Shown here in pieces: positions 1,725 through 63,064 of a stretch of DNA of 64,000 nucleotides. The stretch lies in sequence record MT446423.1; one strand, 5' to 3'. The stretch comes from Escherichia virus TH58. Positions within the stretch are counted from its first letter, which is position 1, and each line of letters starts with the position of its first letter. The notes under the pieces are model-generated. The model made no database searches. It saw only the letters and a list, made by a program, of their open reading frames with translations, and was not told the DNA's origin. Made by a program: the position numbers and the translations under genes.

Positions 1725-2258
1725 AAATTGAAAAAGAAATTGAAGGATTAATTCATAAAACTAATAAAGATCTTTTGAACGAGAATGCTAATAAAGATTC
1801 TCGTGTTTTTCCAACTCAACGGGACCTTATGGCTGGTATTGTGTCTAAGCACATTGCTAGAAATATGGTCCCGTCTTTTATTATGAAAGCACATGAAAGC
1901 GGAATTATCCATTTCCATGATATTGATTATTCCCCTGCTCTTCCGTTTACTAATTGCTGTTTAGTAGATTTAAAAGGAATGCTTGAGAATGGATTTAAAT
2001 TAGGCAATGCTCAAATTGAAACGCCTAAATCTATTGGCGTTGCTACTGCAATTATGGCACAAATTACTGCACAAGTTGCTTCACATCAGTACGGCGGAAC
2101 GACTTTTGCTAATGTAGATAAAGTACTTTCTCCTTATGTTAAACGCACCTATGCAAAACATATTGAGGATGCAGAAAAATGGCAAATCGCTGATGCGTTG
2201 AATTATGCCCAATCTAAAACAGAAAAAGACGTATACGATGCATTCCAAGCTTATGAGT
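1721..2258 (+). CDS. nrdD: anaerobic ribonucleotide reductase NrdD, exon 1
   Basis: N-terminal NrdD sequence; reading frame hits TAA 2264-2266 just inside a group I intron; 5' splice site placed after U2258 by P1 pairing (exon AUGAGU with intron GCUCAU at about 2272-2277). Confidence 0.85.
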
Positions 2259-2469
2259 TAATTTAATTCAGGCTCATGTAAAACCGGTCTAAACGGGGAA
2301 CCTCTCTAGTAGACAATCCCGTGCTAAATGTTCTTTTGAACTAAATGCCTAACGACTAACCGTGATGAATGTAGCGGTGTAGAATAGAAGCTAATGCTAT
2401 TCGAAACGGCCGGCATCGAAAGATGAAGATATAGTCTAATCTGCATGGCGACATGCAGCAGTCATCTTG

Positions 2470-2477
2470 TATAAATA
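2470..2477 (+). promoter_or_regulatory. T4 late-promoter motif TATAAATA upstream of intron ORF
   Basis: Exact TATAAATA about 30 nt upstream of ATG 2507, followed by GAGGTG Shine-Dalgarno. Confidence 0.4.
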
Positions 2478-2506
2478 AGATTATCTTATGAATACGAGGT
2501 GAAACA

Positions 2507-3277
2507 ATGAAATGGATAAAAAGACGTTGTACTAAAATAAAAGATAAAGACGCATTTACATACTTAGTTAAGTTTTCTAATGGCGACATTTATATCGGTT
2601 ATAAAAAATTTAGAACAATTAAAAACAAGCCCACAAACTGGAAAACTTACACAACGTCATCTAAGTATATAAATGAACGCTTAAAAACTGATACACCTAC
2701 TAAATGGATAATTTTAAAAACATTTGATAGTTATAAAGACGCATTAAAACATGAAGAAGAGGTCATACGTAAATATTTTTATAACAAAAAATGTTTAAAT
2801 AAATCCATAGGCGGTAAAAAGTTTTATAAGCATCCGGATACTGAAGAACATATTCAAAAATTAAGAGATGCTCATAAGGGTAAAGTGTTATCCGAATCTC
2901 ATAAAAACAATATAAAATCTTCTGTAGCTGAATATTATGCTAAAAACGGAAGATCTAAGGAACATGTGCAAAATAATATCAATAGTCGAAAAAGTAAAAA
3001 ACAAGTATCGATAAAGCTTAAAAATAAAACTTTTAGAAGTTTTAAAAAAGCGGCGGAATATTTAAATTGCACTGAAAGTGAAGTCGAAACTCATCCTCTT
3101 GTTTTGAGTATTAAGACTACTATTCATAAAGTTCCTGAATATGTGGTTGTTGACGGTATTAAGTATACGTCTTATATAGAAGCAGCTAAAGCGCTAAATT
3201 TTCATCCTAGCACTATAAAAGAACGTTGCATATCTATGGACTATCCAAATTTTGTTGTTTCATATAAACGGGCATGA
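2507..3277 (+). CDS. intron-encoded GIY-YIG homing endonuclease (I-TevII-like)
   Basis: 256 aa within nrdD intron; N-terminal GIY-YIG-like segment (..DIYIGYKK..), repeated NUMOD3-like basic repeats, C-terminal helix-turn-helix (VVDGIKYTSYIEAAKALN). Confidence 0.8.
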   Translation: MKWIKRRCTKIKDKDAFTYLVKFSNGDIYIGYKKFRTIKNKPTNWKTYTTSSKYINERLKTDTPTKWIILKTFDSYKDALKHEEEVIRKYFYNKKCLNKSIGGKKFYKHPDTEEHIQKLRDAHKGKVLSESHKNNIKSSVAEYYAKNGRSKEHVQNNINSRKSKKQVSIKLKNKTFRSFKKAAEYLNCTESEVETHPLVLSIKTTIHKVPEYVVVDGIKYTSYIEAAKALNFHPSTIKERCISMDYPNFVVSYKRA

Positions 3278-3291
3278 ATTTGCGACTCATG

Positions 3292-4583
3292 CTGAATATA
3301 ATGATGAAGTAAATACACTTTTCAGCTCTAATGGACAAACGCCTTTTGTAACAATTACATTTGGAACAGGAACTGACTGGACTGAACGAATGATTCAAAA
3401 AGCAATTCTGAAAAATCGTATTAAAGGTCTTGGACGTGACGGGATAACTCCTATTTTCCCTAAACTTGTTATGTTCGTTGAAGAAGGTGTTAATCTTTAT
3501 AAAGACGACCCGAACTACGATATTAAGCAGCTTGCTCTAGAGTGTGCAAGCAAAAGAATGTATCCTGATATTATTTCGGTTAAGAATAATAAAACTATCA
3601 CCGGTTCTTCAGTTCCTGTTTCTCCAATGGGCTGCCGTAGTTTCTTGAGCGTATGGAAAGATTCGACTGGTAATGAAATTCTTGATGGACGTAATAATCT
3701 TGGCGTTGTAACACTGAATCTTCCTCGTATTGCATTAGATTCTTATATTGGAACACAATTCAATGAACAGAAATTTGTTGAGTTATTTAATGAACGAATG
3801 GATCTGTGTTTTGAAGCCTTGATGTGTAGAATTAGTTCCTTAAAAGGAGTTAAAGCGACTGTTGCTCCTATTCTTTATCAAGAAGGTGCATTTGGGGTTC
3901 GTCTTAAACCTGATGATGACATAATTGAGTTATTTAAAAACGGTAGAAGTTCGGTGTCTTTAGGATACATTGGTATTCATGAATTGAATATTCTTGTCGG
4001 ACGTGATATTGGGCAAGAAATTTTAACTAAAATGAATGCTCGTCTTAAGCAGTGGACTGAAAGAACTGGTTTTGCTTTTAGCTTGTATTCTACTCCCGCT
4101 GAAAACCTTTGTTATCGCTTCTGTAAACTTGATACCGAGAAATATGGAAGTGTAAAAGATGTTACTGATAAAGGCTGGTACACTAATAGTTTCCATGTTT
4201 CAGTAGAAGAAAATATCACTCCGTTTGAAAAGATTTCTCGCGAAGCACCATATCATTTCATTGCGACCGGCGGACACATTTCTTATGTTGAACTTCCTGA
4301 TATGAAAAATAACTTAAAAGGACTTGAGGCTGTATGGGATTATGCCGCACAACATTTAGATTATTTTGGTGTTAATATGCCAGTAGATAAATGTTTTACA
4401 TGTGGAAGTACCCATGAAATGACTCCTACCGAAAACGGATTTGTTTGTTCTATTTGTGGAGAAACTGATCCTAAAAAGATGAACACAATAAGAAGAACAT
4501 GCGGTTATCTCGGAACTCCTAGCGTTGTTCCGTGGAATTTAGGTAAAATGAAAGAAATGGTAAAACGAGTAAAACATGCATAG
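3292..4583 (+). CDS. nrdD: anaerobic ribonucleotide reductase NrdD, exon 2
   Basis: Continues NrdD; zinc site CFTCGS..CSICG and C-terminal glycyl-radical motif RRTCGYLG; spliced protein about 609 aa. Confidence 0.85.
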
Positions 4584-5406: not shown

Positions 5407-5873
5407 ATTATGATAGATTTTATCCTTGCGATTTTGTGAATGGTCCTGGTTGCAGGGTTGTTCTTTTCGTTACAGGGTGTTTGCATAAATGCGAAGGGTG
5501 TTATAATAAATCAACATGGAATGCTAGAAATGGTATTCCATTCACTGGTGAAACACTAGAGCAATTAATTGAATGTTTGAATAATGATTATATAGAAGGA
5601 TTAACTATAACTGGAGGAGACCCTCTCTATCCTGATAACCGAGATGTTGTTCATTGCATCGTTCAAACAGTAAAAAATCTTTGTCCCAATAAAAGCATTT
5701 GGTTATGGACAGGATATAAGTTTGAAGATATTAAACAACTAGAAATGCTTAAATATGTTGATGTTATTATTGATGGGAAGTATGAGAAAAATCTTCCGAC
5801 CAAAAAACTGTGGCGAGGATCAGATAATCAGCGACTTTGGTCAAATACCGATGGGGTGTGGAAACATGATTAA
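5403..5873 (+). CDS. nrdG: anaerobic RNR activating enzyme NrdG (radical SAM)
   Basis: Start refined to MNYDRFYPCDF; CLHKCEGC radical-SAM cluster motif; matches T4 NrdG. Confidence 0.9.
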   Translation: MNYDRFYPCDFVNGPGCRVVLFVTGCLHKCEGCYNKSTWNARNGIPFTGETLEQLIECLNNDYIEGLTITGGDPLYPDNRDVVHCIVQTVKNLCPNKSIWLWTGYKFEDIKQLEMLKYVDVIIDGKYEKNLPTKKLWRGSDNQRLWSNTDGVWKHD

Positions 5874-9124: not shown

Positions 9125-9682
9125 ATGACTGAACAAAAACCTAAAAATAATTATGTGAATAATAAAGAGCTTCTCGCCGCTATAATCGAGTGGAAAAAGG
9201 AGCTCTTAAATAATAAAGACCCAAACAAAATTATTCGTCAGAATGATACCATCGGTTTAGCAATTATGCTTATCGCCGAAGGCCTGTCCAAACGTTTCAA
9301 CTTTTCAGGATATACCCAGTCTTGGAAGCAGGAGATGATTGCAGATGGGATTGAAGCCTCTATTAAGGGACTTCATAATTTCGACGAAACTAAGTACAAT
9401 AACCCACATGCATACATAACTCGAGCTTGTTTTAATGCTTTTGTCCAACGTATCAAAAAAGAACGTAAGGAAGTTGCAAAGAAATATAGTTACTTCGTTC
9501 ATAATGTCTACGACAGTCATGACGATGATATGGTAGCGTTGGTAGATGAAACGTTTATTCAAGACATCTACGATAAAATGACGCATTATGAAGAATCCGC
9601 TTATAAAGCTCCTGGGGCTGAAAAGAAGGAAGTTGTTAGCGATTCGCCTAGTTTGGATTTTTTATATGAGGATGACAATTGA
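9125..9682 (+). CDS. 55: late-transcription sigma factor gp55
   Basis: 185 aa; sequence (..[50 protein letters not shown]..) matches T4 gp55 as remembered. Confidence 0.92.
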
Positions 9683-9881
9683 CATCTCTAACTACTTAGA
9701 AGAACCTTTTGACGAAGCAATCCCTTATTTGGTAAAACTGTTGGGTCGTGAATTTAAAATTAATTTTGACATCGACCCTTTGAACCCACATGACGTGTCA
9801 TTTTCGATAAATGGGACTCCAGTTGAGTATGAGTTCCGTATTGAAGAGGATGGACGTTTTTATTTTAATTTAATGAGATAA
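9672..9881 (+). CDS. hypothetical protein (69 aa)
   Basis: ATG overlapping end of gene 55; occupies the region where T4 carries alpha-gt. Confidence 0.4.
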
Positions 9882-9882
9882 T

Positions 9883-10206
9883 ATGACTACCGAGATTATT
9901 GAAAATAAAGAAGCAGAAGATGCAGTAGCTAAAATGCTACAAGAAATCCAAAAGAAAAATGAAGCTGAAGCACGTAAAAAATCTGAAAAGATTCTTAAAA
10001 AGAATCGTTTTGAACTAAACCGTCTTTATGCTCATGCTCAAGAAGCAGCAATTCAAAACAACTTCGAAGCTTACGAATATGCTATTAAGAAATCTCGGGA
10101 TATTCTACGACAACCATATAATGACAAGTTAATTAAAATCCAGTGGATTACTACTCGTCAGGCTATTGAGGACATCATTAATGGCGCTAGTTCAAACAAA
10201 GTTTAA
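9883..10206 (+). CDS. hypothetical protein (107 aa)
   Basis: Track ORF, charged helical-looking protein. Confidence 0.5.
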   Translation: MTTEIIENKEAEDAVAKMLQEIQKKNEAEARKKSEKILKKNRFELNRLYAHAQEAAIQNNFEAYEYAIKKSRDILRQPYNDKLIKIQWITTRQAIEDIINGASSNKV

Positions 10207-10387
10207 ACGTCTTAATCTGAACGCAGGATTCTCCCTTAAATTGGGAGGTCCTCTTTGTGTTAAAATCTCTGAAAAGGAATATCACGACGGTTCTATTACA
10301 GAAATTTGTCCGCCTATTGTAAAGGCAGACCCAAAACAACTCGTGTGGGTTGATTCATTTCAAGTTAAGAAATGGTGGAAACGATGA
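10181..10387 (+). CDS. hypothetical protein (68 aa)
   Basis: Internal ATG of track ORF 10166-10387. Confidence 0.35.
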   Translation: MALVQTKFKRLNLNAGFSLKLGGPLCVKISEKEYHDGSITEICPPIVKADPKQLVWVDSFQVKKWWKR

Positions 10388-10426
10388 GAGAAATCGATTT
10401 AGGTATTTTCTGAGAGGTGATTATGC

Positions 10427-10600
10427 ATGACGAACGACCTGACCTCTGAAAATTTCGATAAAATCCGTAAAGGCAAAGCAGAAAGAATGAGACGTTTTAA
10501 AGAGTCTTATGATAAAGCTAAAGCCGAAGGAACTATTACATACAAGCCTATTCGATTTAAAAGTTCAAATGAGCCTCTGTATGGTGTACTATGTGGATAG
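10427..10600 (+). CDS. small hypothetical protein (57 aa)
   Basis: ORF below track cutoff, read by eye; GAGGTGA SD 6 nt upstream; ends at terminator. Confidence 0.3.
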   Translation: MTNDLTSENFDKIRKGKAERMRRFKESYDKAKAEGTITYKPIRFKSSNEPLYGVLCG

Positions 10601-10626
10601 GAACTCTTCGGAGTTCCTTTTTTTTT
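10600..10626 (+). terminator. rho-independent terminator
   Basis: GGAACTC-ttcg-GAGTTCC hairpin followed by nine T. Confidence 0.8.
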
Positions 10627-10650
10627 GCTTTATATTTGGGATGATAAAAT
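10626..10650 (+). promoter_or_regulatory. putative middle (MotA-dependent) promoter upstream of gene 47
   Basis: MotA-box TGCTTTA, 12-nt spacer, -10 TAAAAT. Confidence 0.45.
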
Positions 10651-10673
10651 GAACCAACTAATGAGGAAAACAT

Positions 10674-10817
10674 ATGATTATATTTTTAGGTGTGACTATA
10701 TTGATATTAGCCTTCTATCTATTCACTAGGGCGTGTTGGATAGGTTTCTTTAGTACCCCAGATGGATTAATTTCTATGGTTTTATTTTGCATTGCGATAA
10801 TGGCGTTAGACTTATGA
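10674..10817 (+). CDS. small hydrophobic protein (47 aa)
   Basis: ORF read by eye; GAGGAAAA SD; stop overlaps ATG of gene 47. Confidence 0.35.
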   Translation: MIIFLGVTILILAFYLFTRACWIGFFSTPDGLISMVLFCIAIMALDL

Positions 10818-11833
10818 AAATTTTGCACTTAGGCGACTTCCATATCGGAGTCAAACAAGACGACCCATGGGTTCAAGATATTCAACGTGATGGTATTCGT
10901 CAAGCAATTGAATACTCTAAGAAACATGGGATTAAAACTTGGATTCAGTACGGTGATTGGTTTGACGTCCGTAAAGCAATAACACATCGTACAATGGAAT
11001 TCAATCGTGAAATCGTTGATATGATTTCTAAAGCAGGCATTCACGTTCATGTCACGATAGGAAACCATGACATGGCGTTTAAGAATACAATAACACCTAA
11101 CACTGTTTCTGAATTGTTAACTCAATTTGAAAACTTTACTATTTACGAGCATCCAACTACTGTAGATTTTGACGGATGTCTGATTGATATCGTTCCATGG
11201 ATGTGTGAAGAAAATACAGGTGAAATCTTAGAGCACATCAAGACTTCTTCCGCAGCGTATTGTGTTGGGCACTGGGAACTGAATGGCTTTTATTTCTATA
11301 AAGGAATGAAGTCTCATGGGCTTGAACCTGATTTCTTAAAGACCTATAAACAAGTCTGGTCCGGCCACTTCCACACAATCTCTGAAGCTGCTAACGTCAA
11401 ATATATTGGGACACCATGGACCCTTACTGCAGGCGATGAGAACGACCCTCGAGGATTCTGGGTATTTGACACTGATGTTGAACGTATGGAATTTATTCCT
11501 AATGAAACAACATGGCATCGACGAATCACTTATCCGTTTAAAGGCAAAATCAATTATTCTGATTATACTAATCTAGCCATACGTGTTATAGTATCAGAAA
11601 TTGATTCAGAGTTGACTAAGTTTGAATCTGAACTTGAAAAAGTAGTTCACTCTCTTCGTATGGTTTCTAAAGTTGATAACAGTGTTGAATCTGATGATGA
11701 CCAGGAAATCGAGATTAAATCACTTCAAGATATCATTAAAGAATATATTGACGCGATTCCAGATATCTCAGATGAAGATAGAGAAGCGCTGGTCAAATAT
11801 TCCAACGAACTTTATATTGAGGCAACACAATGA
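10814..11833 (+). CDS. 47: recombination nuclease subunit gp47 (Mre11-like)
   Basis: Start refined to MKILHLGDFHIG; calcineurin-like phosphoesterase motifs (GDFH, GNHD); 339 aa as in T4. Confidence 0.9.
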   Translation: MKILHLGDFHIGVKQDDPWVQDIQRDGIRQAIEYSKKHGIKTWIQYGDWFDVRKAITHRTMEFNREIVDMISKAGIHVHVTIGNHDMAFKNTITPNTVSELLTQFENFTIYEHPTTVDFDGCLIDIVPWMCEENTGEILEHIKTSSAAYCVGHWELNGFYFYKGMKSHGLEPDFLKTYKQVWSGHFHTISEAANVKYIGTPWTLTAGDENDPRGFWVFDTDVERMEFIPNETTWHRRITYPFKGKINYSDYTNLAIRVIVSEIDSELTKFESELEKVVHSLRMVSKVDNSVESDDDQEIEIKSLQDIIKEYIDAIPDISDEDREALVKYSNELYIEATQ

Positions 11834-20207: not shown

Positions 20208-20843
20208 ATGAAAACTACTCCTATTACTATCGCTATTGACGCAATCATAAAACAAGCTTCTTCTTTGGCCGCTATGGCCAAAGTAATTAGTCAAAACCCT
20301 GCTCGTTATAATGCTATTCTAGAAACTCTTCGACGCCCAGGACTTAGTAATTATGAAAGTCGTGTAATTATTACAGGTGTTGGTAAGAACGCTAATATCG
20401 CAACTAAAGCTTCTGAGACTTTTGCTTCATTAGGTATTCCTAGCATGTATTTGAACACCGGGCATTATTCTCACGGCGATGCAGGATTCATTGCGCCTAA
20501 TGATGTGTTGATTCATATTAGTCGTTCTGGTAAAACTGAAGAAATGATAGGCGTGGCTAAGCATCTTAAAATGATTCGTCCGAACGTCAAACAGATTCTG
20601 TTGCATTGTAACCCAGACATTCCACAAGAAAATGAAGCCCTTTTTGATTACTCTTTCTGTACAGGCATCGCAGTAGAGGTTGATGAGAATTCTCTGGCTC
20701 CGACTATGTCCACTACATTGTTGTTAGCGCTTATCGATACGTTTGCTATCAACCTTTCGTCTGAACGTGGATTTACCTCTAATGACTTCCTTAAGTTCCA
20801 CCCTGGTGGTGCACTAGGTGCCATGTTACGAGGCGAACAATGA
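20208..20843 (+). CDS. SIS-domain sugar-phosphate isomerase, arabinose-5-phosphate isomerase-like (no CBS domains)
   Basis: GVGKNANIATKASETFASLGIPSMYL..HGDAGFIAPNDVLIHISRSGKTEE matches the KdsD/KpsF/GutQ SIS signature; not found at this locus in T4. Confidence 0.8.
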   Translation: MKTTPITIAIDAIIKQASSLAAMAKVISQNPARYNAILETLRRPGLSNYESRVIITGVGKNANIATKASETFASLGIPSMYLNTGHYSHGDAGFIAPNDVLIHISRSGKTEEMIGVAKHLKMIRPNVKQILLHCNPDIPQENEALFDYSFCTGIAVEVDENSLAPTMSTTLLLALIDTFAINLSSERGFTSNDFLKFHPGGALGAMLRGEQ

Positions 20844-20983
20844 AAGCAATAACAATAGGACTTTTACTATTGATGCTTGTCATGACTATCTACTGGAGCT
20901 TAACGGCTCCAGTAATGATTCCAACACTTGTAATCGGATGGATTATGATTGGACTACAAGCAAAGTATGAATGCTTTAACTAG
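20840..20983 (+). CDS. small hydrophobic protein (47 aa)
   Basis: ORF read by eye; ATG overlaps stop of the SIS gene; two predicted TM segments. Confidence 0.3.
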   Translation: MKAITIGLLLLMLVMTIYWSLTAPVMIPTLVIGWIMIGLQAKYECFN

Positions 20984-20996
20984 AATAGTGTACAAT
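20970..20996 (+). promoter_or_regulatory. putative middle promoter upstream of nucleotidyltransferase-kinase gene
   Basis: MotA-box aaTGCTTTA, 12-nt spacer, -10 TACAAT. Confidence 0.45.
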
Positions 20997-21024
20997 ACTC
21001 CTACTTACCAATGAGGACCACAAC

Positions 21025-22710
21025 ATGAAAAAAGCTGTTATTCTTGGTGCTGGACTGGCAACTCGTTTGTATCCAATAACGCATCATATTCCTAAGGTGC
21101 TTGTTAACTATAAACAAGACACTATTCTGAGCAATTTGTATACAATTTATTCTGACCTTGGCGCAGATGAAATTATTGTAGTAGTTCATTCAAAATTTGC
21201 TGAAACCGTTCGAGCTTATTGTGAGCAAGAAGGGTTCAATGTGACTATTCGTACAGTTGATGAAGCATATGGTTCTGCTTATGCTCTTGCTAAATTGCAC
21301 AAAGATTTAGACGGTCATAATGTAATTGTTAACTGGTGTGATATTATTCCCGATTTTGGTTCATGGTCTTGGAATGTTAACGCAATCTATGTTAAGGGTG
21401 ACGAATGTCGATATAATTTCGACGGTGAAAATATCACTAACGTAGGTTCAACAGGTGGTAATGTTGTAGGAATTTATCAGTTCAAAGACTGGGAATTCTA
21501 TATGGGTTCTACTGATGAGGAAATTCATGAATACTGCAAAGGACGTGATTTCGTAGAATTCCTTTACGGCAGCGCATTCAATAAATCAGAGCTTATGAAT
21601 CTAATTGATTTAGGTGATATGCCTAAACTTGAAAAGGCTCATGAAGTTCGTGAACTTAATCGTAGTTTTAATGCGGTTGAAATTGGTGAAGAAACTGTAA
21701 CTAAATTCGCATTAACCGAACAGGGCCGATCTCTTCAGAAAGATGAGATTTCATGGTATCTTAAAGTGAAATCAGATTCAGTTCCTCAGTTAGTTTCTGT
21801 TAATGAAAATAACTTTGAAATGGAACGCATTAAAGGTAAGCCGGCATTTGAATATATTAAATCCAAATCGAGTCTTGCTCGTCCACAAATTGTTGATGCA
21901 ATTTTAGATGCACTGAAATTCAGCACAGACACTTATTTTGTAAGTCCTGAAACTGTTCGTCGTGATTTCACTAAAGAATTCTATACTAAAGTCATCGATC
22001 GTTGTGAAAGTATTCAACCATTGATTGATTCATTTGGTAAAATCACACATGTGAACTACACTAAGATTGGACGTCTGAAGCCAATGTTGAAACAAGCTTT
22101 AGAACACCTTATTCGTTATCATAACCGTTCTCAGGGACAGTACTCTGTTATTCATGGTGACCCGAACTTCAGTAATACTATGATTACTGATAATGGTGAA
22201 GTAAAGTTTATCGACCCTCGTGGATATTTTGGTGAAACCAAGATTTACGGGCCAAAATTGTATGACGAAGCTAAAGTGCTTTACGCTGTTTCAGGTTATG
22301 ATGAATTCAACGCCAATCCGACCTGGGGACAGTTTACTATTGATGAAATAACCTGTAATGTGACTATTAACATCAATCCATTAGTTTACAAATATGGAAA
22401 GATGAGTTCGTTTAACGTGTATCATCATTTGGCAGTGGCAATTATCTGGATTGCATTAGGTGGTTATTTCAAGAATAATCCACTTAAAGCGGTAGCCGCA
22501 TATTATAAAGGTATGGAACTTCTGACTAAGCAATTACGTAACATGGGCCGTGTACTTCAGGACGGCACTATTAGTTATGATGTAGCAGAACCTGTAACGG
22601 CTACTCTGATTACAAAAAATCCTGGTAAATGGGTACTAACTGATAAAGAAACTGGTGTTTCTTATCGTCCAATCGGTGGCGATAACACTCATCAATGGGA
22701 ACGAATCTAA
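21025..22710 (+). CDS. bifunctional sugar-1-phosphate nucleotidyltransferase / sugar kinase (561 aa)
   Basis: N-terminal GAGLATRL nucleotidyltransferase signature; C-terminal choline-kinase/APH-like kinase fold with HGDPNFSN catalytic loop and FIDPRGYF. Confidence 0.75.
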   Translation: MKKAVILGAGLATRLYPITHHIPKVLVNYKQDTILSNLYTIYSDLGADEIIVVVHSKFAETVRAYCEQEGFNVTIRTVDEAYGSAYALAKLHKDLDGHNVIVNWCDIIPDFGSWSWNVNAIYVKGDECRYNFDGENITNVGSTGGNVVGIYQFKDWEFYMGSTDEEIHEYCKGRDFVEFLYGSAFNKSELMNLIDLGDMPKLEKAHEVRELNRSFNAVEIGEETVTKFALTEQGRSLQKDEISWYLKVKSDSVPQLVSVNENNFEMERIKGKPAFEYIKSKSSLARPQIVDAILDALKFSTDTYFVSPETVRRDFTKEFYTKVIDRCESIQPLIDSFGKITHVNYTKIGRLKPMLKQALEHLIRYHNRSQGQYSVIHGDPNFSNTMITDNGEVKFIDPRGYFGETKIYGPKLYDEAKVLYAVSGYDEFNANPTWGQFTIDEITCNVTININPLVYKYGKMSSFNVYHHLAVAIIWIALGGYFKNNPLKAVAAYYKGMELLTKQLRNMGRVLQDGTISYDVAEPVTATLITKNPGKWVLTDKETGVSYRPIGGDNTHQWERI

Positions 22711-23096
22711 TGCACCGTGTAAAAAACATGCTTAATCTTTGTTTTGACGTCGATGATTGTATAACAGAGTGGAATAACAATCGTGATTACGTGAACTTCA
22801 AACCGGACGTCGAAATGGTGTCTGCCATTAATGCCCTGTATGATGCAGGGCATACCATAACGCTTTACACTGCTCGCGGTATGAAGTCAGTCGGTCCTGG
22901 TCGTATAGCAATTGACATTCTCCCAAGTCTGATTCAGAACTTGGCAAACATTGGATTGAAGTACCATAATTTGCTAACACATAAACCAGTATATGATTGG
23001 ATTATCGACGACAAAGCTATGCGTCCTGACGAATTCAAAGCTCTTATGAATAAAGGCGAATTCGAAACATTTAAATCATATAAACCGAATCTATAA
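22710..23096 (+). CDS. HAD-superfamily phosphatase (128 aa)
   Basis: HAD motif I FDVDDCIT, motif II LYTARG, motif IV IIDDKA; start may instead be ATG 22695. Confidence 0.65.
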   Translation: MHRVKNMLNLCFDVDDCITEWNNNRDYVNFKPDVEMVSAINALYDAGHTITLYTARGMKSVGPGRIAIDILPSLIQNLANIGLKYHNLLTHKPVYDWIIDDKAMRPDEFKALMNKGEFETFKSYKPNL

Positions 23097-23150
23097 TAAT
23101 TTAAGTAAGACCTGCAAAAACCATCGCAACAATTAACGCGAGATGCAAAA

Positions 23151-24311
23151 ATGAATACCTTTAAAATCGGAACGAATTTTGATTTAGCTCTTCTTGATAA
23201 AATCGTAGAGCTCAATAAAACTTATCCTAATAGCTTGATAAACGAAGTATACGGCTCTACAAGAGAAATGGCTTTTGTAGCAGCCAGACCTGATTTTAGG
23301 CTTCCTGACGTTGACAAAAAGATGTTAGAAGATTACGTTAAACGTTGTAACGAATTAGGTATTTGCTTTAACTATACACTCAACACGATAAATCCTGGTT
23401 CAAAAAGAGAACTAGTTGAGTGGAAGAAGAAAGCTATTCAGGATTATGTTCAGTATCTTTGGTCAATAGGTGTATGGCGTATTACTATCGCTAACCCTGT
23501 TGTTATGGAAATTGTTCGTGAAGTCAATAAAGACATTGAGATTGAAGTTTCAACAATTCTACATGTCGATGCTGTAACTCAAATCAAATACTTGCATGAC
23601 CAATATAATATCAAAAAGGTCTGCTGTGGAATTCACAAGAACCGTTCAGTTTCTTTCCTGAAGCGTGCAGCAGAGTTTTGCAATAAGAACAATATAATAT
23701 TTGAAGTTCTTGTAAATGAGTTCTGTTCTAATGCTGGTAAAGGGTATACAACACATTGTAGTTATCGTGACTCTTGCTATATTTTCCATAGCACCGATGT
23801 TACAGTAGATGATGCCAAATCCTTAAATGGATATCCAATGCAACACTGTATTAAAGCTCGTGATACAGATCCATTTAACTGGTTGAGAACTCGTTTTGTT
23901 CGTCCTCAAGATTTGAAACTTTATAATGATATTGGTATCACTCAATTCAAAGTTTCAGGACGTACAGGTAGCACAGACTACATTTTGAAAGTTCTTGAAG
24001 CATACGCTTCTGAAAAGTTTGAAGGTAATTTGTTAGAACTGTGGAAGCCTTTAGAGACTATTTTCACTCTTGAAAACGAAACTGAGTTTTCACATACAGT
24101 AAATATTGAAACCTCTTTGTTAGATGGCTTTTTAGAAAAAAGGTGGTTCAAACATCCAGATTTCGATTGTGCTAATGAAATCTGCGGGACGACGTGTACA
24201 TATTGTGAAAGATATTATAAACGTCAGTTATCTAAAAATGGGTTATCAGAAAACTCTATATCTATTATTGATATAACTAACTCTGACGACGCTTTGAGGT
24301 ACCCAGAATGA
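23151..24311 (+). CDS. Cys-rich enzyme of unknown function, possibly TIM-barrel / peptidase-U32-like (386 aa)
   Basis: Alternating beta-strand/helix pattern and EVLVNEFCSNAGKGYTTHC segment loosely resemble U32-family proteins; C-terminal CANEICGTTCTYC cysteine cluster; assignment uncertain. Confidence 0.55.
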   Translation: MNTFKIGTNFDLALLDKIVELNKTYPNSLINEVYGSTREMAFVAARPDFRLPDVDKKMLEDYVKRCNELGICFNYTLNTINPGSKRELVEWKKKAIQDYVQYLWSIGVWRITIANPVVMEIVREVNKDIEIEVSTILHVDAVTQIKYLHDQYNIKKVCCGIHKNRSVSFLKRAAEFCNKNNIIFEVLVNEFCSNAGKGYTTHCSYRDSCYIFHSTDVTVDDAKSLNGYPMQHCIKARDTDPFNWLRTRFVRPQDLKLYNDIGITQFKVSGRTGSTDYILKVLEAYASEKFEGNLLELWKPLETIFTLENETEFSHTVNIETSLLDGFLEKRWFKHPDFDCANEICGTTCTYCERYYKRQLSKNGLSENSISIIDITNSDDALRYPE

Positions 24312-24589: not shown

Positions 24590-25306
24590 ATGGGAAAACA
24601 TAACACAATGAAATATATTAAAGCCGCAGATTTTCAATCCGCATTTAAAGCTGTCAATCGTGAAATTTTAGAAAACCCGGAATTCGTTACTGATTCTCGT
24701 ATTGGACGTTGTAATGAAATTGGGTCTATGACAGTAGTTGTTGACACTCCATCATCATTCAAAATGACCGACCCACGTATTAACCGCATCTCTTATGAAT
24801 ATGCTGAAGATTTCTGGAAGTTTATGATTTCTGGCGGTACCGACGCAGAAGAAGCATTTAAGGCATATCCTAATGTCGCTAAATTTATTTCTAAACCAAA
24901 ATCAGATGCTTTGCCTGCGAACTTCAACACTTTCTATGGTCCACGAATTGCGGCCCAGTTACCAGCTCTTCTCAAAGAACTTAAAGAGAAACCTAATTCA
25001 CGAAGAGTTGTGTTCCAAATTCTAGAAAGTTCAGATCAGGCTTTGCTTGATTCGGACGAAACACTTGAATATCCATGTACTGACTCAGTGACTTATTATA
25101 TTCGTGATGGTAAGCTTTATACCCACTGTCATATGCGTTCTCAGAACTGTGCTGTTGTTATGCAGTTGGATTTTTATCTCCAAGGAAAATTACTTCATTA
25201 TATCGCTAACGAATGTGGTGTAGAAGTTGGTGATTATACTCATACCATGGTAAGTGCCCATGTGTTTGAACGTGATTTTGATTATGTTAAAGGATTCCTT
25301 GACTAA
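24590..25306 (+). CDS. 42: dCMP hydroxymethylase gp42 (thymidylate-synthase fold)
   Basis: 238 aa; TS-family active-site region PCTDSVTYYIRDGKLYTHCHMRSQNCAVVMQLDF; position between gene 43 and uvsX. Confidence 0.82.
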   Translation: MGKHNTMKYIKAADFQSAFKAVNREILENPEFVTDSRIGRCNEIGSMTVVVDTPSSFKMTDPRINRISYEYAEDFWKFMISGGTDAEEAFKAYPNVAKFISKPKSDALPANFNTFYGPRIAAQLPALLKELKEKPNSRRVVFQILESSDQALLDSDETLEYPCTDSVTYYIRDGKLYTHCHMRSQNCAVVMQLDFYLQGKLLHYIANECGVEVGDYTHTMVSAHVFERDFDYVKGFLD

Positions 25307-26205
25307 TGGCTATTTTCCGCGTACCTATCTTGAGTATGCGGTCTTATGAAACTGGTCAGTATGCTATCCTTAAGGATGGTAACTTCCAACTTCATTTGCA
25401 CCGTGCTAATCCAGGTGATGTGATTACATATCCACGTAATGCATCTGATATTAAAGAATGTGAACGTCTTTTCCCAGAATTTAAGTTTGTTCCATTATGG
25501 TATAAAGATAACGCGTATAACACTCGTAAATATTTCTGGTCTGAAAATGAATTTGTGGTTGATTCATTAATTGCTTATTATGATTGTGATTTTCTAATCA
25601 CAGATATCACTGGATATGACGGCGCTTTTGATGTGGAATTCAATTTCAATATCACTGCAGACCCTAATAAACCGCGTTTTTATATTGACGAATTCTTAAA
25701 AACCGACATGTTGTCGGTTAATCGTTCACTTCAAACTACTGTGTTGAATGAACGTCAAAAGGAAGTGCTGGTTAACGCTGGTGCGGATGGTAATAAGATT
25801 ATCGTAACGCAGAAAGTTATACGTCCTTCCATCATGCAGCGTCTTGTAGGTGATTTGGCTCCTATTCATCTAGATGGTATTTTTCATCCATTTCGAATTA
25901 GTGACCCGTGCTATCGTTTTGAACAAGTGGTTGAATGTGCAATTCAATTAGGTCAACCGCTTTATATAACCGATCCAAATAATAGCTTCGACAGAAATAA
26001 GTATCCTGAAGAAGCGCTGATTCGAATTTTTAAACCAACTAAAACTGAGTACTATCAAATTCTTAAAGGTCGGCCGAAGATTCAATATTTCGAAAATCCT
26101 GAAGAAGTATTCCATCCAGGTCTTGGCGAGTTCATCTACTTTAACGCTTTAATTTCTTCGCCGTATAATATACCTAAATATGAAGATGTCGTAATCGAGG
26201 AATAA
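25306..26205 (+). CDS. putative glycosyltransferase at the beta-gt locus (candidate hmC-DNA arabinosyltransferase), 299 aa
   Basis: Occupies the T4 beta-gt position but is unrelated to beta-gt; C-terminal FEQVVECAIQLGQPLYITD resembles a GT-B donor-binding segment; function inferred. Confidence 0.5.
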   Translation: MAIFRVPILSMRSYETGQYAILKDGNFQLHLHRANPGDVITYPRNASDIKECERLFPEFKFVPLWYKDNAYNTRKYFWSENEFVVDSLIAYYDCDFLITDITGYDGAFDVEFNFNITADPNKPRFYIDEFLKTDMLSVNRSLQTTVLNERQKEVLVNAGADGNKIIVTQKVIRPSIMQRLVGDLAPIHLDGIFHPFRISDPCYRFEQVVECAIQLGQPLYITDPNNSFDRNKYPEEALIRIFKPTKTEYYQILKGRPKIQYFENPEEVFHPGLGEFIYFNALISSPYNIPKYEDVVIEE

Positions 26206-26206
26206 A

Positions 26207-26755
26207 ATGGCTAAAATTATTTTAGTAGATGGCCCGGATAATGCTGGTAAAACAACTTTCATTAATGACATAATGGAAATTAGTGAAAGATATGTAAAGA
26301 TTGATTTCCCTAAACGAACAGTTGACGGACGTTTCGATGTTAAGTCTCGAAATGAAGTTGGTTGTTTCGAAACGATGTTGAATTATTTAGATCCTACTAA
26401 GATTTATCTGTTAGACCGTGGATATATTAGTAACTGGGTTTATGGACGTATTCGTCAAGATGCTGACTCGGTTCTTGACGTTTATGAACAGGATTATGTT
26501 CGTCTTTGCCAAAACCACGATGTGTTCACAATTATTTTAACACGTAACGAAATGACTGAAAGTTTTGAAGACGACCTTATTACTTTGTCTTCATTCGGTT
26601 TTAATACAGTAATTTCATATTTTGAAGAGTTTGCAATCCATAACGAAATCCAAACGTATCAATTACTTAATCATGATGGTGCTAACAAAGTTATAGGATT
26701 TAATGCAAGCGAACGTAATAATTTGATTACAGAAATTATCAAATGGGCTCGTTAA
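26207..26755 (+). CDS. P-loop kinase, nucleotide-kinase-like (182 aa)
   Basis: Walker A ILVDGPDNAGKTT at N-terminus, LDRGYISN downstream; thymidylate/deoxynucleotide-kinase-like architecture. Confidence 0.6.
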   Translation: MAKIILVDGPDNAGKTTFINDIMEISERYVKIDFPKRTVDGRFDVKSRNEVGCFETMLNYLDPTKIYLLDRGYISNWVYGRIRQDADSVLDVYEQDYVRLCQNHDVFTIILTRNEMTESFEDDLITLSSFGFNTVISYFEEFAIHNEIQTYQLLNHDGANKVIGFNASERNNLITEIIKWAR

Positions 26756-33094: not shown

Positions 33095-34117
33095 ATGGCT
33101 GAATGGATAGATAATGAATTTGCTTATCGTGCGTTTTCTCACCTACCTCGTTTTAGACAAATCAATAATTCAAGCACATTTAAATTAACATTTCGATGCC
33201 CAGTTTGTGGCGACTCCCAGACAGATGCAATGAAAGCTCGCGGATGGTATTATGGCGGTACTCCAGGTAATGTGCATTGCTATAACTGTCAATATCATAA
33301 TACGATTTCCGGATACTTAAAAGAGTATGACGAAGAGCTTTATCGTGAATATCTAATGGAAGTTCGTAAAGAAAAAGCTAGAATGGAACCAAAGATTGAA
33401 AAGGTTCCTGAACATAAACCAGAACCGGAGAAAAAGACTATAAATTCTTTGCCGTCTTGTTCTCGTCTGGACAAGTTGCCTGAAGAGCATCCTATTGTGA
33501 AATATGTTAAGTCTCGGTGTATTCCTAAAGAATCATGGAACAGATTATGGTTCACATTAGAATGGCCTAAATTGGTCAACAAGATTCAACCAGGCACGTA
33601 TAAGAAAGAGATTCCAGAACCGCGTTTAGTGATTCCTATTTTTAATAAAGACGGGAAGGCTGAGTCATTTCAAGGACGTGCACTTCGCAAAGATGCTCCT
33701 CAGAAATATATCACTATTAAAGCGTTTGAGTCTGCAACAAAAATTTATGGTGTTGAACGTGTTAAGGAAGGAGACGTCTGGGTAATGGAAGGCCCTATTG
33801 ATAGTTTATTCATACCCAATGCAATCGCTATTACAGGCGGCTCAATAGATTTAGATGTGGTACCATTTAAAGAACGTCGGGTATGGGTGATGGATAATGA
33901 ACCTAGGCATCCGGATACTATAGCTCGTATGAAGCGATTAGTAGATGCAGGCGAACGTGTTATGTTCTGGGATAGAGCTCCATGGAGTTCAAAGGATGTG
34001 AATGATATGGTAATGAAAGAAAATGCAACACCACAAGAAATTTTAGAATATATGAAACAGAATATTTCAAGTGGGTTGCATGCTAAAATGAGATTATCTC
34101 GTTATTCGAAGATTTAA
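33095..34117 (+). CDS. 61: DNA primase gp61
   Basis: 340 aa; N-terminal zinc ribbon CPVCGDS..CYNC; WIDNEFAYRAF..NNSSTFKL start matches T4 primase as remembered. Confidence 0.92.
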   Translation: MAEWIDNEFAYRAFSHLPRFRQINNSSTFKLTFRCPVCGDSQTDAMKARGWYYGGTPGNVHCYNCQYHNTISGYLKEYDEELYREYLMEVRKEKARMEPKIEKVPEHKPEPEKKTINSLPSCSRLDKLPEEHPIVKYVKSRCIPKESWNRLWFTLEWPKLVNKIQPGTYKKEIPEPRLVIPIFNKDGKAESFQGRALRKDAPQKYITIKAFESATKIYGVERVKEGDVWVMEGPIDSLFIPNAIAITGGSIDLDVVPFKERRVWVMDNEPRHPDTIARMKRLVDAGERVMFWDRAPWSSKDVNDMVMKENATPQEILEYMKQNISSGLHAKMRLSRYSKI

Positions 34118-34311
34118 ACAAGCCCTATAATAGCAAAGGCCAAATCAACTACAGTATCCAAAGGAACAGAAGGAACCATAACACCATGGGCAACTAACAA
34201 TGGTGCAATCCCGAAGTTCCATGAAATAATGCCACCTACAACTATTGCAGCGATAGCAGTTTTCTTTTTATTGCCTTTAATAGCGTTGATTAACGATGGA
34301 AGTTTAAACAT
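34114..34311 (-). CDS. small membrane protein on the opposite strand (65 aa)
   Basis: Track ORF; AAGGAG SD 5 nt upstream of ATG on - strand; hydrophobic TM-rich sequence; convergent with gene 61. Confidence 0.5.
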   Translation of the reverse strand: MFKLPSLINAIKGNKKKTAIAAIVVGGIISWNFGIAPLLVAHGVMVPSVPLDTVVDLAFAIIGLV

Positions 34312-34401
34312 AATATCTCCTTAGTTACCTTATTATTTATTACGCTTTATAAAATTAATGTTAGAATTAACTTCTCTTATACTGAATTGAAAGGAAAAAT
34401 A

Positions 34402-34923
34402 ATGGCGCACTTTAATGAATGTTCACAACTTATTTCTGGTGTTGATAAAGCAGAAGAAGCTTATTTTAATGCTCTGATTCACGAAGATAAAGACCCACTT
34501 CAGGTAATGCTTGATATGCAGAAATCTTTACAGGTTCGTCTGGCAAATGACAAGCCTGATCATAACAAACATCCTGATGAATTGGCCACTGCCGGCGATG
34601 TTGTTGATTGGTTGCGTAATCAGAAAGATTATATTGATGATGAATTCCGTGAACTGCTGACTTCACTTGGTGGTATGTCCAACGGTGAAAAAGCCGCTAG
34701 CTCTGTATGGAAGCCATGGAAAGCACAACATGCTGAATATCGAAATCGTCGTATCGATGAACTGTCTCCTGAAGACCAGCTTGAAATTAAATTCGAGATG
34801 ATTGATATCCTCCACTTTGTTCTGAATATGTTCCAAGGTCTGGGACTTTCCGCTGAAGAAATCTTTAAACTGTATTACTTGAAGAATGCTGAAAACTTCG
34901 CTCGCCAAAACCGAGGTTACTAA
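34402..34923 (+). CDS. 56: dCTP pyrophosphatase gp56 (MazG-like)
   Basis: Start refined to MAHFNEC; 173 aa; matches T4 gp56 as remembered. Confidence 0.9.
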   Translation: MAHFNECSQLISGVDKAEEAYFNALIHEDKDPLQVMLDMQKSLQVRLANDKPDHNKHPDELATAGDVVDWLRNQKDYIDDEFRELLTSLGGMSNGEKAASSVWKPWKAQHAEYRNRRIDELSPEDQLEIKFEMIDILHFVLNMFQGLGLSAEEIFKLYYLKNAENFARQNRGY

Positions 34924-46389: not shown

Positions 46390-47490
46390 ATGAAAGTTAT
46401 GTTTATCCCATCTCGTGCGGTCCCATTTAATCCTGACCGTGTACAAGGTGGCCTTGAAGCAGTACATTTAAATGTGTTGAAATATTTAGTTTCTATTGGT
46501 GCTGATATTGATTATATCGGTTTTGATAATGACACGTTTGGTGACTGGAAAGTTACACACCATCCTGTTGGTCATCTGACTAAATTCAGTCTAGGTATGA
46601 GTTATACTATGGCTCGTAAGATTGTTGAACTAGCCGGCATCCATGAATACGATTTTGTTGTTACTATGGAACCGACTAAACTAACCGTTCAGGCAATTAA
46701 AGACGCAGGTCTCTCTAAAGTTCATAAGAATTTTATGGCAACACCATTTGAACCGGTATCTCGTGGCATTGTTCAAATTTGGGACCAGACTATTCAAATT
46801 CATAAGAATGGTGGTAAGAGTTATGCTCCTACTAAAGCCTTCCGTGAATTTGAACGTAAATATTGTTATATGACTTCAGGTCTGACTGACAAAATTGATT
46901 ATGATTATTGGCGAGCAAATCCGTTGTTTGAAGCCGAAGATTATCCGGTTATTTGTTTGAATGAGAAACCTGAAGTTCTTCCGGCGACTGATTTGATTAT
47001 TAGTGCACAACGTTATGACACTAAAATGCGTCGTACTGATGTTGCTCTTGAAGCGATTAAAGCACTAGGCGAAAATGGTGTAGGATATTGTCCAAGCAAA
47101 TGGGCACCACCAGCTAAATATCCTGTTATTATTGATGCTCAACATAGTGAAATCATGGAACGTCTTAAAACAGCTAAAGCACTTATTAATACGTGTCCTG
47201 ACACAGGTACGGTAGAGAATAGTTCTATTGAAGCCATCTCTAAAGGTGTCCCTGTAATCCAGTTAGTTTTTAAGGATTATCCTCATGCGACATTCGAATA
47301 CGACCCAGATACTGTGCGTGTAGAAATTGATTCCTCTACTCCTAAGAAAGAAGTAGTTGCGCTTTACACAAAAGCTGTATTAGAATTCACTGACACATAC
47401 GAAGCTCGAGTTAAACGTGCTGAAGCAGTATGGAAGAAGTATAATCGAGATGCAGTTGTTGCGATGTGGGATAAAATCTTCACAGCGTAA
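46390..47490 (+). CDS. GT-B-fold glycosyltransferase (GT1/GT4-like), 366 aa; second candidate DNA-modifying glycosyltransferase
   Basis: N-terminal MKVMFIPSRAV..GGLEAVHLNV and C-terminal GTVENSSIEAISKGVPVI resemble GT-B donor-binding motifs; absent from T4 at this locus. Confidence 0.6.
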   Translation: MKVMFIPSRAVPFNPDRVQGGLEAVHLNVLKYLVSIGADIDYIGFDNDTFGDWKVTHHPVGHLTKFSLGMSYTMARKIVELAGIHEYDFVVTMEPTKLTVQAIKDAGLSKVHKNFMATPFEPVSRGIVQIWDQTIQIHKNGGKSYAPTKAFREFERKYCYMTSGLTDKIDYDYWRANPLFEAEDYPVICLNEKPEVLPATDLIISAQRYDTKMRRTDVALEAIKALGENGVGYCPSKWAPPAKYPVIIDAQHSEIMERLKTAKALINTCPDTGTVENSSIEAISKGVPVIQLVFKDYPHATFEYDPDTVRVEIDSSTPKKEVVALYTKAVLEFTDTYEARVKRAEAVWKKYNRDAVVAMWDKIFTA

Positions 47491-58678: not shown

Positions 58679-59230
58679 TCACTTAAAGATATTTATAATC
58701 GCTTTAATAATAGATTTGTTTTCAAGGTCAGGGAATTTAGGGAACTCGCCGCCAAGATGCTTGTGTTTTTCTAAAAGGGCAAAGAATTTTTTGAGCTCTT
58801 TAAATTTTTGTTTTTCTTCTCTATTAGCAACCTCAGCATCAATAAGAGAACTTAAAACACTGAATAATTTATAGAGTTCACGAATTTTCTTATCGCGTTG
58901 AACTGTGCGCTTATACACTTCATCTTCCTTCCATCCGTTGCCTGTCCAAAGGTCAAATTCACCCGGTTCTTCTGTGGTGACATTTTGAAGAGGGCCCAGA
59001 GTGTCAATAACAATTTTTTGCTTATCATAAGTCCATACTGTTTTTCCACGATGGTCTTCGATGTATTCCCAGTCCTTTTCACGTTCATTAAAAATAACAG
59101 CGTATCCATCTTTAGGTTCTAAAGGTGGTATTTCCGAGGAGTGTGCCGGTAATCCTAATCCCGGGATTACCGTATGGTCGGTTTCTTTATAAAATTCAAA
59201 TGTGTCATAATAATAGTGATAAATTTTCAT
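58679..59230 (-). CDS. 38: long tail fibre assembly/adhesin protein gp38
   Basis: 183 aa; MKIYHYYYDTFEFYKE..GLGLPAHS..EPGEFD.WT..GWKEDE..FFALLEKH.HLGGEFP matches T4 gp38 as remembered. Confidence 0.9.
   Translation of the reverse strand: MKIYHYYYDTFEFYKETDHTVIPGLGLPAHSSEIPPLEPKDGYAVIFNEREKDWEYIEDHRGKTVWTYDKQKIVIDTLGPLQNVTTEEPGEFDLWTGNGWKEDEVYKRTVQRDKKIRELYKLFSVLSSLIDAEVANREEKQKFKELKKFFALLEKHKHLGGEFPKFPDLENKSIIKAIINIFK
58690..58697 (-). promoter_or_regulatory. late promoter TATAAATA for holin t
   Basis: TATAAATA on - strand about 20 nt upstream of t ATG, inside the 3' end of gene 38. Confidence 0.5.
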
Positions 59231-59256
59231 AATTAAAGGGGCTAACGCCCCTCTCC
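59231..59256 (-). promoter_or_regulatory. hairpin-interrupted ribosome binding site of gene 38
   Basis: mRNA reads UAA-GGAGA-GGGGC-guua-GCCCC-UUUAAUU-AUG: SD about 22 nt from AUG with an intervening 5-bp stem-loop. Confidence 0.55.
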
Positions 59257-62200: not shown

Positions 62201-62328
62201 TCATCTTTAGTAAAAATTGTTCTATCTTTTAAGTTTATAGCCAATTCACCTTCGGCTAATACTGAAGCAGCAGGACGTGCACCTGCGGTTTTGCTTCTTT
62301 TAAATTGTATTTGTTTTAAAGTAGCCAT
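59257..62328 (-). CDS. 37: long tail fibre distal subunit gp37 (receptor-binding)
   Basis: 1023 aa; C-terminal HxH repeat region (HTHTVSG, HAHTAS, HSHTWSG, HNHTV, HTHTFS, HGHTI) and terminal NYIVRLA. Confidence 0.92.
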
Positions 62329-62336
62329 AAGTCCTC

Positions 62337-63002
62337 TTAATAATAGCCGAAATCTTGAACAGAATCCTTAATTACGATTTGGTCAAATCGTGGAACATGC
62401 GAAGGTTGAGATGCAGGATTCTGTGAGAAAAAGTTTGGCGCTGTTAAGTTACCTGTCATGGTATCACCTGACCGTAGCACCCTGGAATTTGCGTTATCTG
62501 TAACAATATTTATTCGTCCATCAACGTAATCTTTTCTTGTGAGATCATTCGCTGCTATAGGAGCAGTCGCATCACTTCTTACTTGACCAGCTGCCGACAC
62601 AACACCTTTTGTATTAATATCACCATTACGTGCATTAATTACAACAGTTCGGGCTGCTGAACCCTGTGATGATTTAAAACCAATGCCATTCCACGAAACA
62701 ATATCGATATTTGCTACAGCAAAAGTAGCATTATCACCGTTACCTGGATAAATACCACATGGGTTTGTATTGTTTACAGCATATGGTACTTGAACACCAG
62801 CATTAAATGTTACCTTTGATGCATAAGTACCGCCATTAGCTTTAGAAACGAAATCGTTATCAGCAGCTTGTGGTTTATTATATTCTGAATAAAGTTTAAA
62901 CGTTTTATACAGGACGTCATCACCTGCCGGCATTAAAGGGAAATTACCTTGATGCCATATAACGGCACCACCAGCTGTACTACCAGCTTTTAAATCGGCC
63001 AT
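62337..63002 (-). CDS. 36: long tail fibre distal connector gp36
   Basis: 221 aa directly upstream of gene 37; AAGGAGA SD. Confidence 0.88.
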
Positions 63003-63026
63003 AGTTGTCTCCTTATATGTATACCA

Positions 63027-63034
63027 TATTTATA
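63027..63034 (-). promoter_or_regulatory. late promoter TATAAATA for genes 36-37-38
   Basis: TATAAATA on - strand about 25 nt upstream of gene 36 ATG, immediately after the gene 35 terminator. Confidence 0.55.
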
Positions 63035-63035
63035 C

Positions 63036-63059
63036 AAAAATGGGAGACCGAAGTCTCCC
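63036..63059 (-). terminator. rho-independent terminator after gene 35
   Basis: On - strand GGGAGAC-uucg-GUCUCCC followed by AUUUUUG. Confidence 0.7.
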
Positions 63060-63064
63060 TAAAT

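Follow-up and report, generated by a model that had tools for sequence, protein, structure and literature searches.

The 64,000-nucleotide stretch of the Escherichia virus TH58 genome (MT446423.1) analysed here is referred to as the window. Its interval between genes 55 and 47 is occupied by four small open reading frames (ORFs), an intrinsic terminator, a putative middle promoter and a fifth small ORF encoding a hydrophobic protein, arranged as follows:

9125..9682, + strand: gene 55, late sigma factor, left border of the interval; 91% identity to T4 gp55, 99.5% to RB69 gp55; PHROG 234, E 4e-68
9672..9881, + strand: a-gt.5 orthologue, 69 aa; Pfam DUF5491, E 3.5e-13; 45% to T4 a-gt.5, 99% to RB69
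9883..10206, + strand: a-gt.4 orthologue, 107 aa; Pfam DUF2654, E 1.6e-27; 61% to T4 a-gt.4
10181..10387, + strand: a-gt.3 orthologue, 68 aa; PHROG 1648, E 8e-33; 68% to T4 a-gt.3, 97% to RB69; overlaps the end of a-gt.4, as in T4
10427..10600, + strand: a-gt.2 orthologue, 57 aa; Pfam DUF5486, E 4.5e-28; 75% to T4 a-gt.2, 98% to RB69
10599..10627, + strand: intrinsic terminator; hairpin with an 8-bp stem and UUCG loop, then T9; fold -12 kcal/mol, z -2.9
10626..10650, + strand: putative MotA-dependent middle promoter for 47.1/47; TGCTTTA-N12-TAAAAT (MotA box/-10)
10674..10817, + strand: 47.1 orthologue, 47 aa, hydrophobic, predicted membrane protein; 72-74% to T4 gp47.1; PHROG 6693, E 2.6e-26
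10814..11833, + strand: gene 47, SbcD/Mre11-like nuclease subunit, right border of the interval; 76% to T4 gp47, 99.7% to RB69; Metallophos

The initial annotation had described the interval as four ORFs of 57-107 aa, a terminator, a middle promoter and a 47-aa hydrophobic ORF, and every one of these elements was recovered, coordinates included. The gap from a-gt.2 to 47.1 is only 73 bp long and consists of the terminator, the promoter and a ribosome-binding site; the 47.1 orthologue and gene 47 overlap by ATGA. The assignment of the promoter is based on its motif, of which the 64 kb window contains 13 instances against 1.9 expected by chance, a count reached in none of the shuffled sequences. 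The same terminator and promoter module is also found 3' of a-gt.2 in T4, RB69, SP18 and Mineola. An Rfam scan of the whole window in gathering mode gave 0 matches, and a local scan gave one group I intron.

The small genes and their relatives in T4 and RB69

By sequence comparison the window is assigned to an RB69-type Mosigvirus, a relative of T4. Its nearest relatives are RB69-like Mosigviruses with 96-98% nucleotide identity, for example PhAPEC2, F2, HY126 and APCEc01. A search for a complete genome identical to the window had no match, the best reaching 96-97%. The window is colinear with RB69 through the nrd genes, 55, 47, 46, 43, uvsX, 41, 61, 56, 39, rIIA and the tail-fibre genes, and matches it gene for gene at 92-100% protein identity, except for gp40 (80%). 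The gene order from 55 to rIIA is shared with RB69 and other Mosigviruses (PhAPEC2, F2, HY126, Bas46/47, NP), which have the same a-gt.5/.4/.3/.2, terminator and promoter between genes 55 and 47. The RB69 annotation of this interval is that of the window minus 47.1; the window keeps the 47.1 gene (135 bp), whereas RB69 and most Mosigviruses lack it. The window further differs from RB69 and its relatives by additional insertions of homing endonucleases close to nrdD and by a tail-fibre region that diverges in its distal part. A partial CEV1 record contains an identical gp55.

Homology searches identified the small ORFs as orthologues of T4 a-gt.5, a-gt.4, a-gt.3, a-gt.2 and 47.1. The order annotated in T4 is 55, a-gt.5, a-gt.4, a-gt.3, a-gt.2, mobB, a-gt, 47.1, 47, and comparison of the interval among the three phages revealed a common backbone; of the three, only T4 has mobB and a-gt, and 47.1 is missing in RB69. 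As these four small genes and 47.1 also occur in T4, the real difference from T4 is the missing mobB and a-gt cassette of about 2.1 kb. The possibility that the small ORFs replace alpha-gt was considered and rejected, because T4 has all four of them, and 47.1, beside alpha-gt.

Of the small genes, a-gt.4 is conserved in all genera surveyed, Lazarusvirus included, a-gt.5 is present in 7 of the 8 other genera and a-gt.3 in most genera, and a-gt.2 and 47.1 are patchy. The genes a-gt.2 to a-gt.5 are kept in phages with glucosyl-hmC, arabinosyl-5-hydroxycytosine and other chemistries; their "a-gt" names are only positional, and their function is probably unrelated to glycosylation. A literature search on the function of a-gt.2 to a-gt.5 and of DUF2654 found no paper.

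Search for T4-type glucosyltransferases

Three queries were compared with the 64 kb window by tblastn, and none gave a significant match: T4 alpha-gt (400 aa; best E 2.9), T4 beta-gt (best E 1.4) and the T2-type beta-alpha-gt, represented by the RB14 sequence (best E 0.32). There is no alpha-gt gene between a-gt.2 and 47.1/47 in the window, nor was a remnant of one found in the 55-47 interval, the 73 bp there being regulatory sequence only. The position between gene 42 and uvsX, which lies inside the window, has neither beta-gt nor beta-alpha-gt and is occupied by a gene for a 299-aa GT-B protein and a kinase-like gene. The claim of the initial annotation that no alpha-gt is located between genes 55 and 47 is thus borne out by both tblastn and gene content, and its claim that beta-gt is also absent holds within the 64 kb window.

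The initial annotation had also pointed to a glucosyltransferase homologue outside the window as the observation that would overturn its view. Such a relocation of alpha-gt or another T4-type glucosyltransferase to the remaining 105 kb or so of the genome is conceivable given the mosaic nature of T4-like genomes and the 64 kb extent of the window, but several observations make it very improbable. The complete RB69 genome (167,560 bp), searched as a stand-in, has no match for T4 alpha-gt, T4 beta-gt or the T2-type beta-alpha-gt, the best hit having E 0.04 over 69 aa. A published analysis found that RB69 lacks homologues of all three of these enzymes and that its DNA contains arabinose; it called the base hmC, which has since been revised (PMC6024577); PMC13326640 likewise reports no T4-type glucosyltransferase in RB69. 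Among 50,697 phage records, 657 contain alpha-gt homologues, about 502 of them with at least 90% identity and about 143 with 60-80%. The gp55 records include about 505 of the Tequatrovirus type, a Klebsiella-phage group and about 146 from Mosigviruses. The alpha-gt counts match those of the Tequatrovirus-type and Klebsiella-phage gp55, with the class of at least 90% identity (502 records) corresponding to the Tequatrovirus type (505), and so leave no room for the roughly 146 Mosigvirus records. In addition, a genome with 5-hydroxycytosine would offer alpha-gt no hydroxymethyl acceptor. With 64 kb of the TH58 genome covered, it is by analogy with RB69 alone that the remainder is judged to be free of a T4-type transferase.

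Predicted arabinosylation genes and modified base

Every RB69 gene from the stretch between gene 43 and uvsX has a counterpart in the window, with 95-100% protein identity. The genes of the predicted modification system, together with the U32-like gene lying among them, are the following:

20208..20843, + strand: arabinose-5-phosphate isomerase (RB69 gp55-like); 100% to RB69 ORF055c; Pfam SIS; role according to PMC13326640
21025..22710, + strand: bifunctional sugar kinase/nucleotidyltransferase, 561 aa (RB69 gp53:52, HY126 AfhE-like); NTP_transferase and a kinase-like C-terminus
22710..23096, + strand: HAD-like sugar phosphatase (RB69 gp51, AfhF-like); 98% to RB69 ORF051c; no match in a Pfam search; role according to PMC13326640
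23151..24311, + strand: peptidase-U32-like protein (RB69 gp50); 99% to RB69 ORF050c; Pfam Peptidase_U32
24590..25306, + strand: ThyA-family predicted 5-hydroxy-dCMP synthase, at the gene 42 position; 99.6% to RB69 ORF048c (gp48)
25306..26205, + strand: 299-aa GT-B fold glycosyltransferase (RB69 gp47:46), predicted first DNA arabinosyltransferase, located where T4 has beta-gt
26207..26755, + strand: thymidylate-kinase-like nucleotide kinase (RB69 gp45); 99% to RB69 ORF045c; assignment according to PMC13326640
34402..34923, + strand: gene 56 dCTPase; 69% to T4 gp56, 98% to RB69
46390..47490, + strand: second GT-B glycosyltransferase (RB69 ORF003c/gp3), predicted to add the second arabinose; 98.9% to RB69 ORF003c

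The UDP-arabinose synthesis cluster spans positions 20208-24311 and includes the arabinose-5-phosphate isomerase, kinase/uridylyltransferase and phosphatase genes, whose products are 98-100% identical to RB69 ORF055c, 053c:052c and 051c. Two genes, 53/52 and 47/46, are each divided in the RB69 record but form uninterrupted single ORFs in the window, in line with reports that attribute the splits to sequencing errors (PMC6024577, PMC13326640). The ThyA-family protein shares only 25% identity with T4 gp42, whereas PDB entries 9iqc/9ir2/9iqu are near-identical to it (E 2e-162). Gene 1, for the dNMP kinase that would phosphorylate 5-hydroxy-dCMP, lies outside the 64 kb window; its position in RB69 is 77.9 kb.

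The 299-aa protein has no Pfam match and no PDB sequence match, and was therefore classified by structure prediction. An AlphaFold2 model built from an alignment of 61 homologous sequences (pLDDT 95.3, pTM 0.89) predicts a GT-B fold, in agreement with Foldseek, indicating that a cluster-encoded GT-B glycosyltransferase of the gp46:47 type is present in the window. The second glycosyltransferase, of the ORF003c type, is encoded between gene 39 and rIIA.1 and is near-identical to PDB entries 9iqz/9ir0, described as "phage HY126 glycosyltransferase" (E 5.5e-250). Given the fold predicted for the 299-aa protein, the window holds two distant structural relatives of alpha-gt and no orthologue of it.

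The absences, gene orthology, ORF intactness and GT-B fold come from the present analysis, and the enzyme activities and DNA chemistry from the literature on near-identical proteins. In RB69, gp48 converts dCMP to 5-hydroxy-dCMP with flavin and O2, and cytosine in virion DNA is replaced by mono- and di-arabinosylated 5-hydroxycytosine, with the sugar ether-linked directly to C5 (PMC13326640). The same paper assigns gp55, gp52:53 and gp51 to UDP-arabinofuranose synthesis and gives gp46:47 and gp3 as the proposed first and second DNA arabinosyltransferases, citing He et al., Nat Chem Biol 2026, for HY126 and Mahler et al., Cell Host Microbe 2025, for Bas46/47. According to PMC13326640, in vitro reconstitution of the first arabinosyl transfer to 5-hydroxycytosine is still awaited for both gp46:47 and its DLP3 counterpart, and this assignment is thus a prediction. 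Independently, 5-ara-dC and 5-ara-ara-dC were reported for Mosigvirus NP (PMC13390438).

On this basis a pathway can be proposed in which the ThyA-family enzyme at the gene 42 position would convert dCMP to 5-hydroxy-dCMP and gp56 would remove dCTP, after which only the modified dCTP would be incorporated; together with dNMP kinase, gp56 would bias the nucleotide pool towards 5-hydroxy-dC in place of dC. The arabinose-5-phosphate isomerase, kinase/uridylyltransferase and phosphatase would supply UDP-arabinofuranose, from which the GT-B enzymes encoded at 25306-26205 and 46390-47490 would transfer two arabinose residues in succession onto the 5-hydroxyl. In RB69-type Mosigviruses the slot from a-gt.2 to 47.1/47 never holds alpha-gt or mobB, and that from 42 to uvsX never holds beta-gt; the reason would be that these phages make no glucosyl-hmC DNA. 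The 55-47 interval is the conserved backbone of this region, with a-gt.5/.4/.3/.2, one terminator and MotA promoter module, 47.1 and 47.

Since a complete RB69-type alternative system is present in the window, we infer by analogy that TH58 DNA carries arabinosyl-5-hydroxycytosine and not hmC. The initial annotation had proposed that the phage cannot glucosylate hmC in the T4 manner, which it considered consistent with an alternative modification system; the genes in the window support this proposal, except that the base would be 5-hydroxycytosine rather than hmC. The explanation as a whole, namely an RB69-type Mosigvirus with an arabinosyl-5-hydroxycytosine system instead of the T4 glucosyltransferases, is assigned a probability of about 0.93. 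In both T4 and TH58 the logic would be the same, with a ThyA-family enzyme making a C5-oxygenated dCMP and GT-B enzymes subsequently glycosylating it. The T4 gene 42 product yields 5-hydroxymethyl-dCMP, whereas its 25% identical homologue in the window is predicted to yield 5-hydroxy-dCMP, and the sugar is predicted to be arabinose.

It is as improbable as a relocated alpha-gt that the two GT-B enzymes are non-orthologous glucosyltransferases and that TH58 DNA is glucosylated by enzymes different from those of T4. Sugar specificity is not readable from the GT-B fold, and the closest structural matches are enzymes that act with UDP-glucose or UDP-GlcNAc; however, the enzymes are embedded in an arabinose nucleotide-sugar cluster that includes arabinose-5-phosphate isomerase, and chemical analysis detected arabinose rather than glucose in the DNA of RB69, NP, HY126 and Bas46/47 (PMC6024577, PMC13326640, PMC13390438). 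Complete loss of sugar modification, with the cluster as a decaying remnant, hardly merits consideration, as all pathway ORFs are intact and 98-100% identical to functional relatives, including the single ORFs for the genes split in the RB69 record.

The a-gt.2/47 junction in other genera

The length and content of the 55-47 interval vary among T4-type genera; the additions beyond the small genes are given below:

T4 (Tequatrovirus): about 3.15 kb; mobB, a-gt and 47.1
Mineola (Jiaodavirus): about 2.4 kb; a-gt, without mobB or 47.1
EI (Marfavirus): 1.63 kb; SegE-like homing endonuclease
SP18 (Gaprivervirus): 1.24 kb; none annotated
TH58 window: 1.13 kb; 47.1
fGh-Ecl04 (Karamvirus): 1.07 kb; none annotated
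RB69 (Mosigvirus): 0.99 kb; none annotated
FL20 (Krischvirus) and AM101 (Lazarusvirus): about 0.6 kb; none annotated

Two genera have alpha-gt in this slot and the other 6 surveyed do not. The view of alpha-gt as a T4-only insertion was rejected, because Mineola, which shares the same backbone, has an alpha-gt (66% identity to T4) in the slot that is empty in the window; for the same reason, gain and loss cannot be polarised from these data. T4 and the window have in common 55, a-gt.5/.4/.3/.2, the terminator and MotA promoter, 47.1 and 47; only T4 has the approximately 2.1 kb of mobB and a-gt between two copies of the module, and the beta-gt beside gene 42. The module, a stem-loop with a UUCG loop followed by the TGCTTTA promoter, flanks the cassette at either edge in the phages with alpha-gt (T4, Mineola) and is present as a single copy in those without it (the window, RB69, SP18).

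This arrangement resembles PeSL cassettes, mobile promoter - stem-loop modules that take part in modular shuffling in T4-type phages (PMC2839356, PMC4122927). The likeness consists in a terminator followed by a promoter, repeated at the edges of variable genes in T4 and Mineola and present as one copy in the window; the difference is that the window promoter matches the MotA middle-promoter consensus and not an early promoter. PeSL-like recombination may have produced the difference at the a-gt.2/47 locus. A broader and rather speculative scenario, which we consider possible but doubtful, is that the a-gt.2/47 junction is a recombination slot where duplicated modules drive the gain and loss of a-gt, mobB, the SegE-like endonuclease and 47.1, that the loss or non-acquisition of a-gt tracks the switch of the lineage from hydroxymethyl- to hydroxy-cytosine, and that a-gt.2 to a-gt.5 serve a non-glycosylation function. 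The duplication of the stem-loop and promoter module around the cassette in alpha-gt-bearing genera is an observation additional to the published facts.

The absence of alpha-gt is correct but already known: RB69 was described in 2018 as lacking T4-type glucosyltransferases, and publications on the pathway followed in 2025-2026. The missing gene itself brings no new biology and mainly marks the window as that of an arabinosyl-5-hydroxycytosine Mosigvirus. DNA carrying this base is resistant to most type II restriction enzymes and CRISPR nucleases, but some defences of the type IV, GmrSD/BrxU and glycosylase kinds do recognise it (PMC13326640, PMC13390438).

Stem-loop and promoter modules at the a-gt cassette

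In T4 and in Klebsiella phage Mineola, each side of the a-gt cassette bears one copy of a module that consists of a stem-loop with a UUCG loop and, directly after it, a MotA-box promoter, a middle-promoter-like site recognised by its sequence. The positions in the respective sequences are as follows.

T4, 2076-2135 and 4170-4242: stem-loop and MotA-box promoter
Mineola, 4422-4460 and 5688-5780: stem-loop and MotA-box promoter

Phages without a-gt carry just one copy of this module. Since the module is double around a-gt and single in its absence, recombination between the modules is suggested as the route by which the cassette has been gained or lost.

Variation at the junction of a-gt.2 and gene 47

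The a-gt.2 gene and terminator of phage ESh27 (positions 1824-1997 of its sequence) are of the type found in the Gaprivervirus SP18, with an identical terminator hairpin sequence in these two phages. The ESh27 a-gt.2 is 54% identical to that of the window, and the genes flanking it are 99-100% identical to their window counterparts. The mosaic exchange is thus confined to a very short stretch, located at the same a-gt.2/47 junction. Some records label the a-gt.2 homologue as a 'prohead core protein protease', as in Klebsiella phage EI (4558-4743), and the window a-gt.2 is also matched by PHROG 17354, 'head maturation protease' (E 3e-14). For a protein of 57-62 aa this label is probably a propagated misannotation.

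A presence/absence polymorphism of 135 bp within Mosigvirus corresponds, with exact edges, to the 47.1 gene (window 10678-10812). The gene is carried by the window phage and by ESh27, CCU7, Mizar and TH12 (95-97% identity), and is missing in RB69, PhAPEC2 and almost every other close relative compared. In Mosigviruses without it, the ribosome-binding site and ATG of 47.1 are fused directly to gene 47, with a shared TATGA at the join. SP18 contains an unannotated copy of 47.1.

Other differences from T4 and RB69

An insertion of about 1 kb, absent from RB69, interrupts nrdD (window 2257-3303), and a free-standing endonuclease gene with no RB69 counterpart lies between nrdD and nrdG.

2223-2458: group I intron in the nrdD insertion (Rfam RF00028, 72 bits)
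2507-3277: GIY-YIG/NUMOD1 endonuclease ORF in the nrdD insertion, 256 aa
4576-5406: SegA-like free-standing homing endonuclease, 276 aa, with NUMOD3 and an I-TevI DNA-binding domain

The intron was overlooked by a gathering-mode Rfam scan of the whole window, despite scoring above the family threshold. The SegA-like endonuclease is 49% identical to T4 SegA over 115 aa.

No homologue of T4 Dam methyltransferase was found in the whole window (best E 1.1). In T4, dam sits between genes 56 and 61; the corresponding window interval is 34114-34402, and RB69 likewise has no dam annotated at this position.

Window ORFs 21025-22710 and 25306-26205 are each intact, whereas the RB69 reference record divides each in two (53c/52c and 47c/46c, respectively), which independently supports the published view that these splits are frameshift sequencing errors in that record. 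In the distal long-tail-fibre/adhesin region, about 3.5 kb (58700-62161) does not match RB69 at the nucleotide level, and identity in the neighbouring segment (62162-63981) is just 75%; the divergent stretch is probably a different host-range module.
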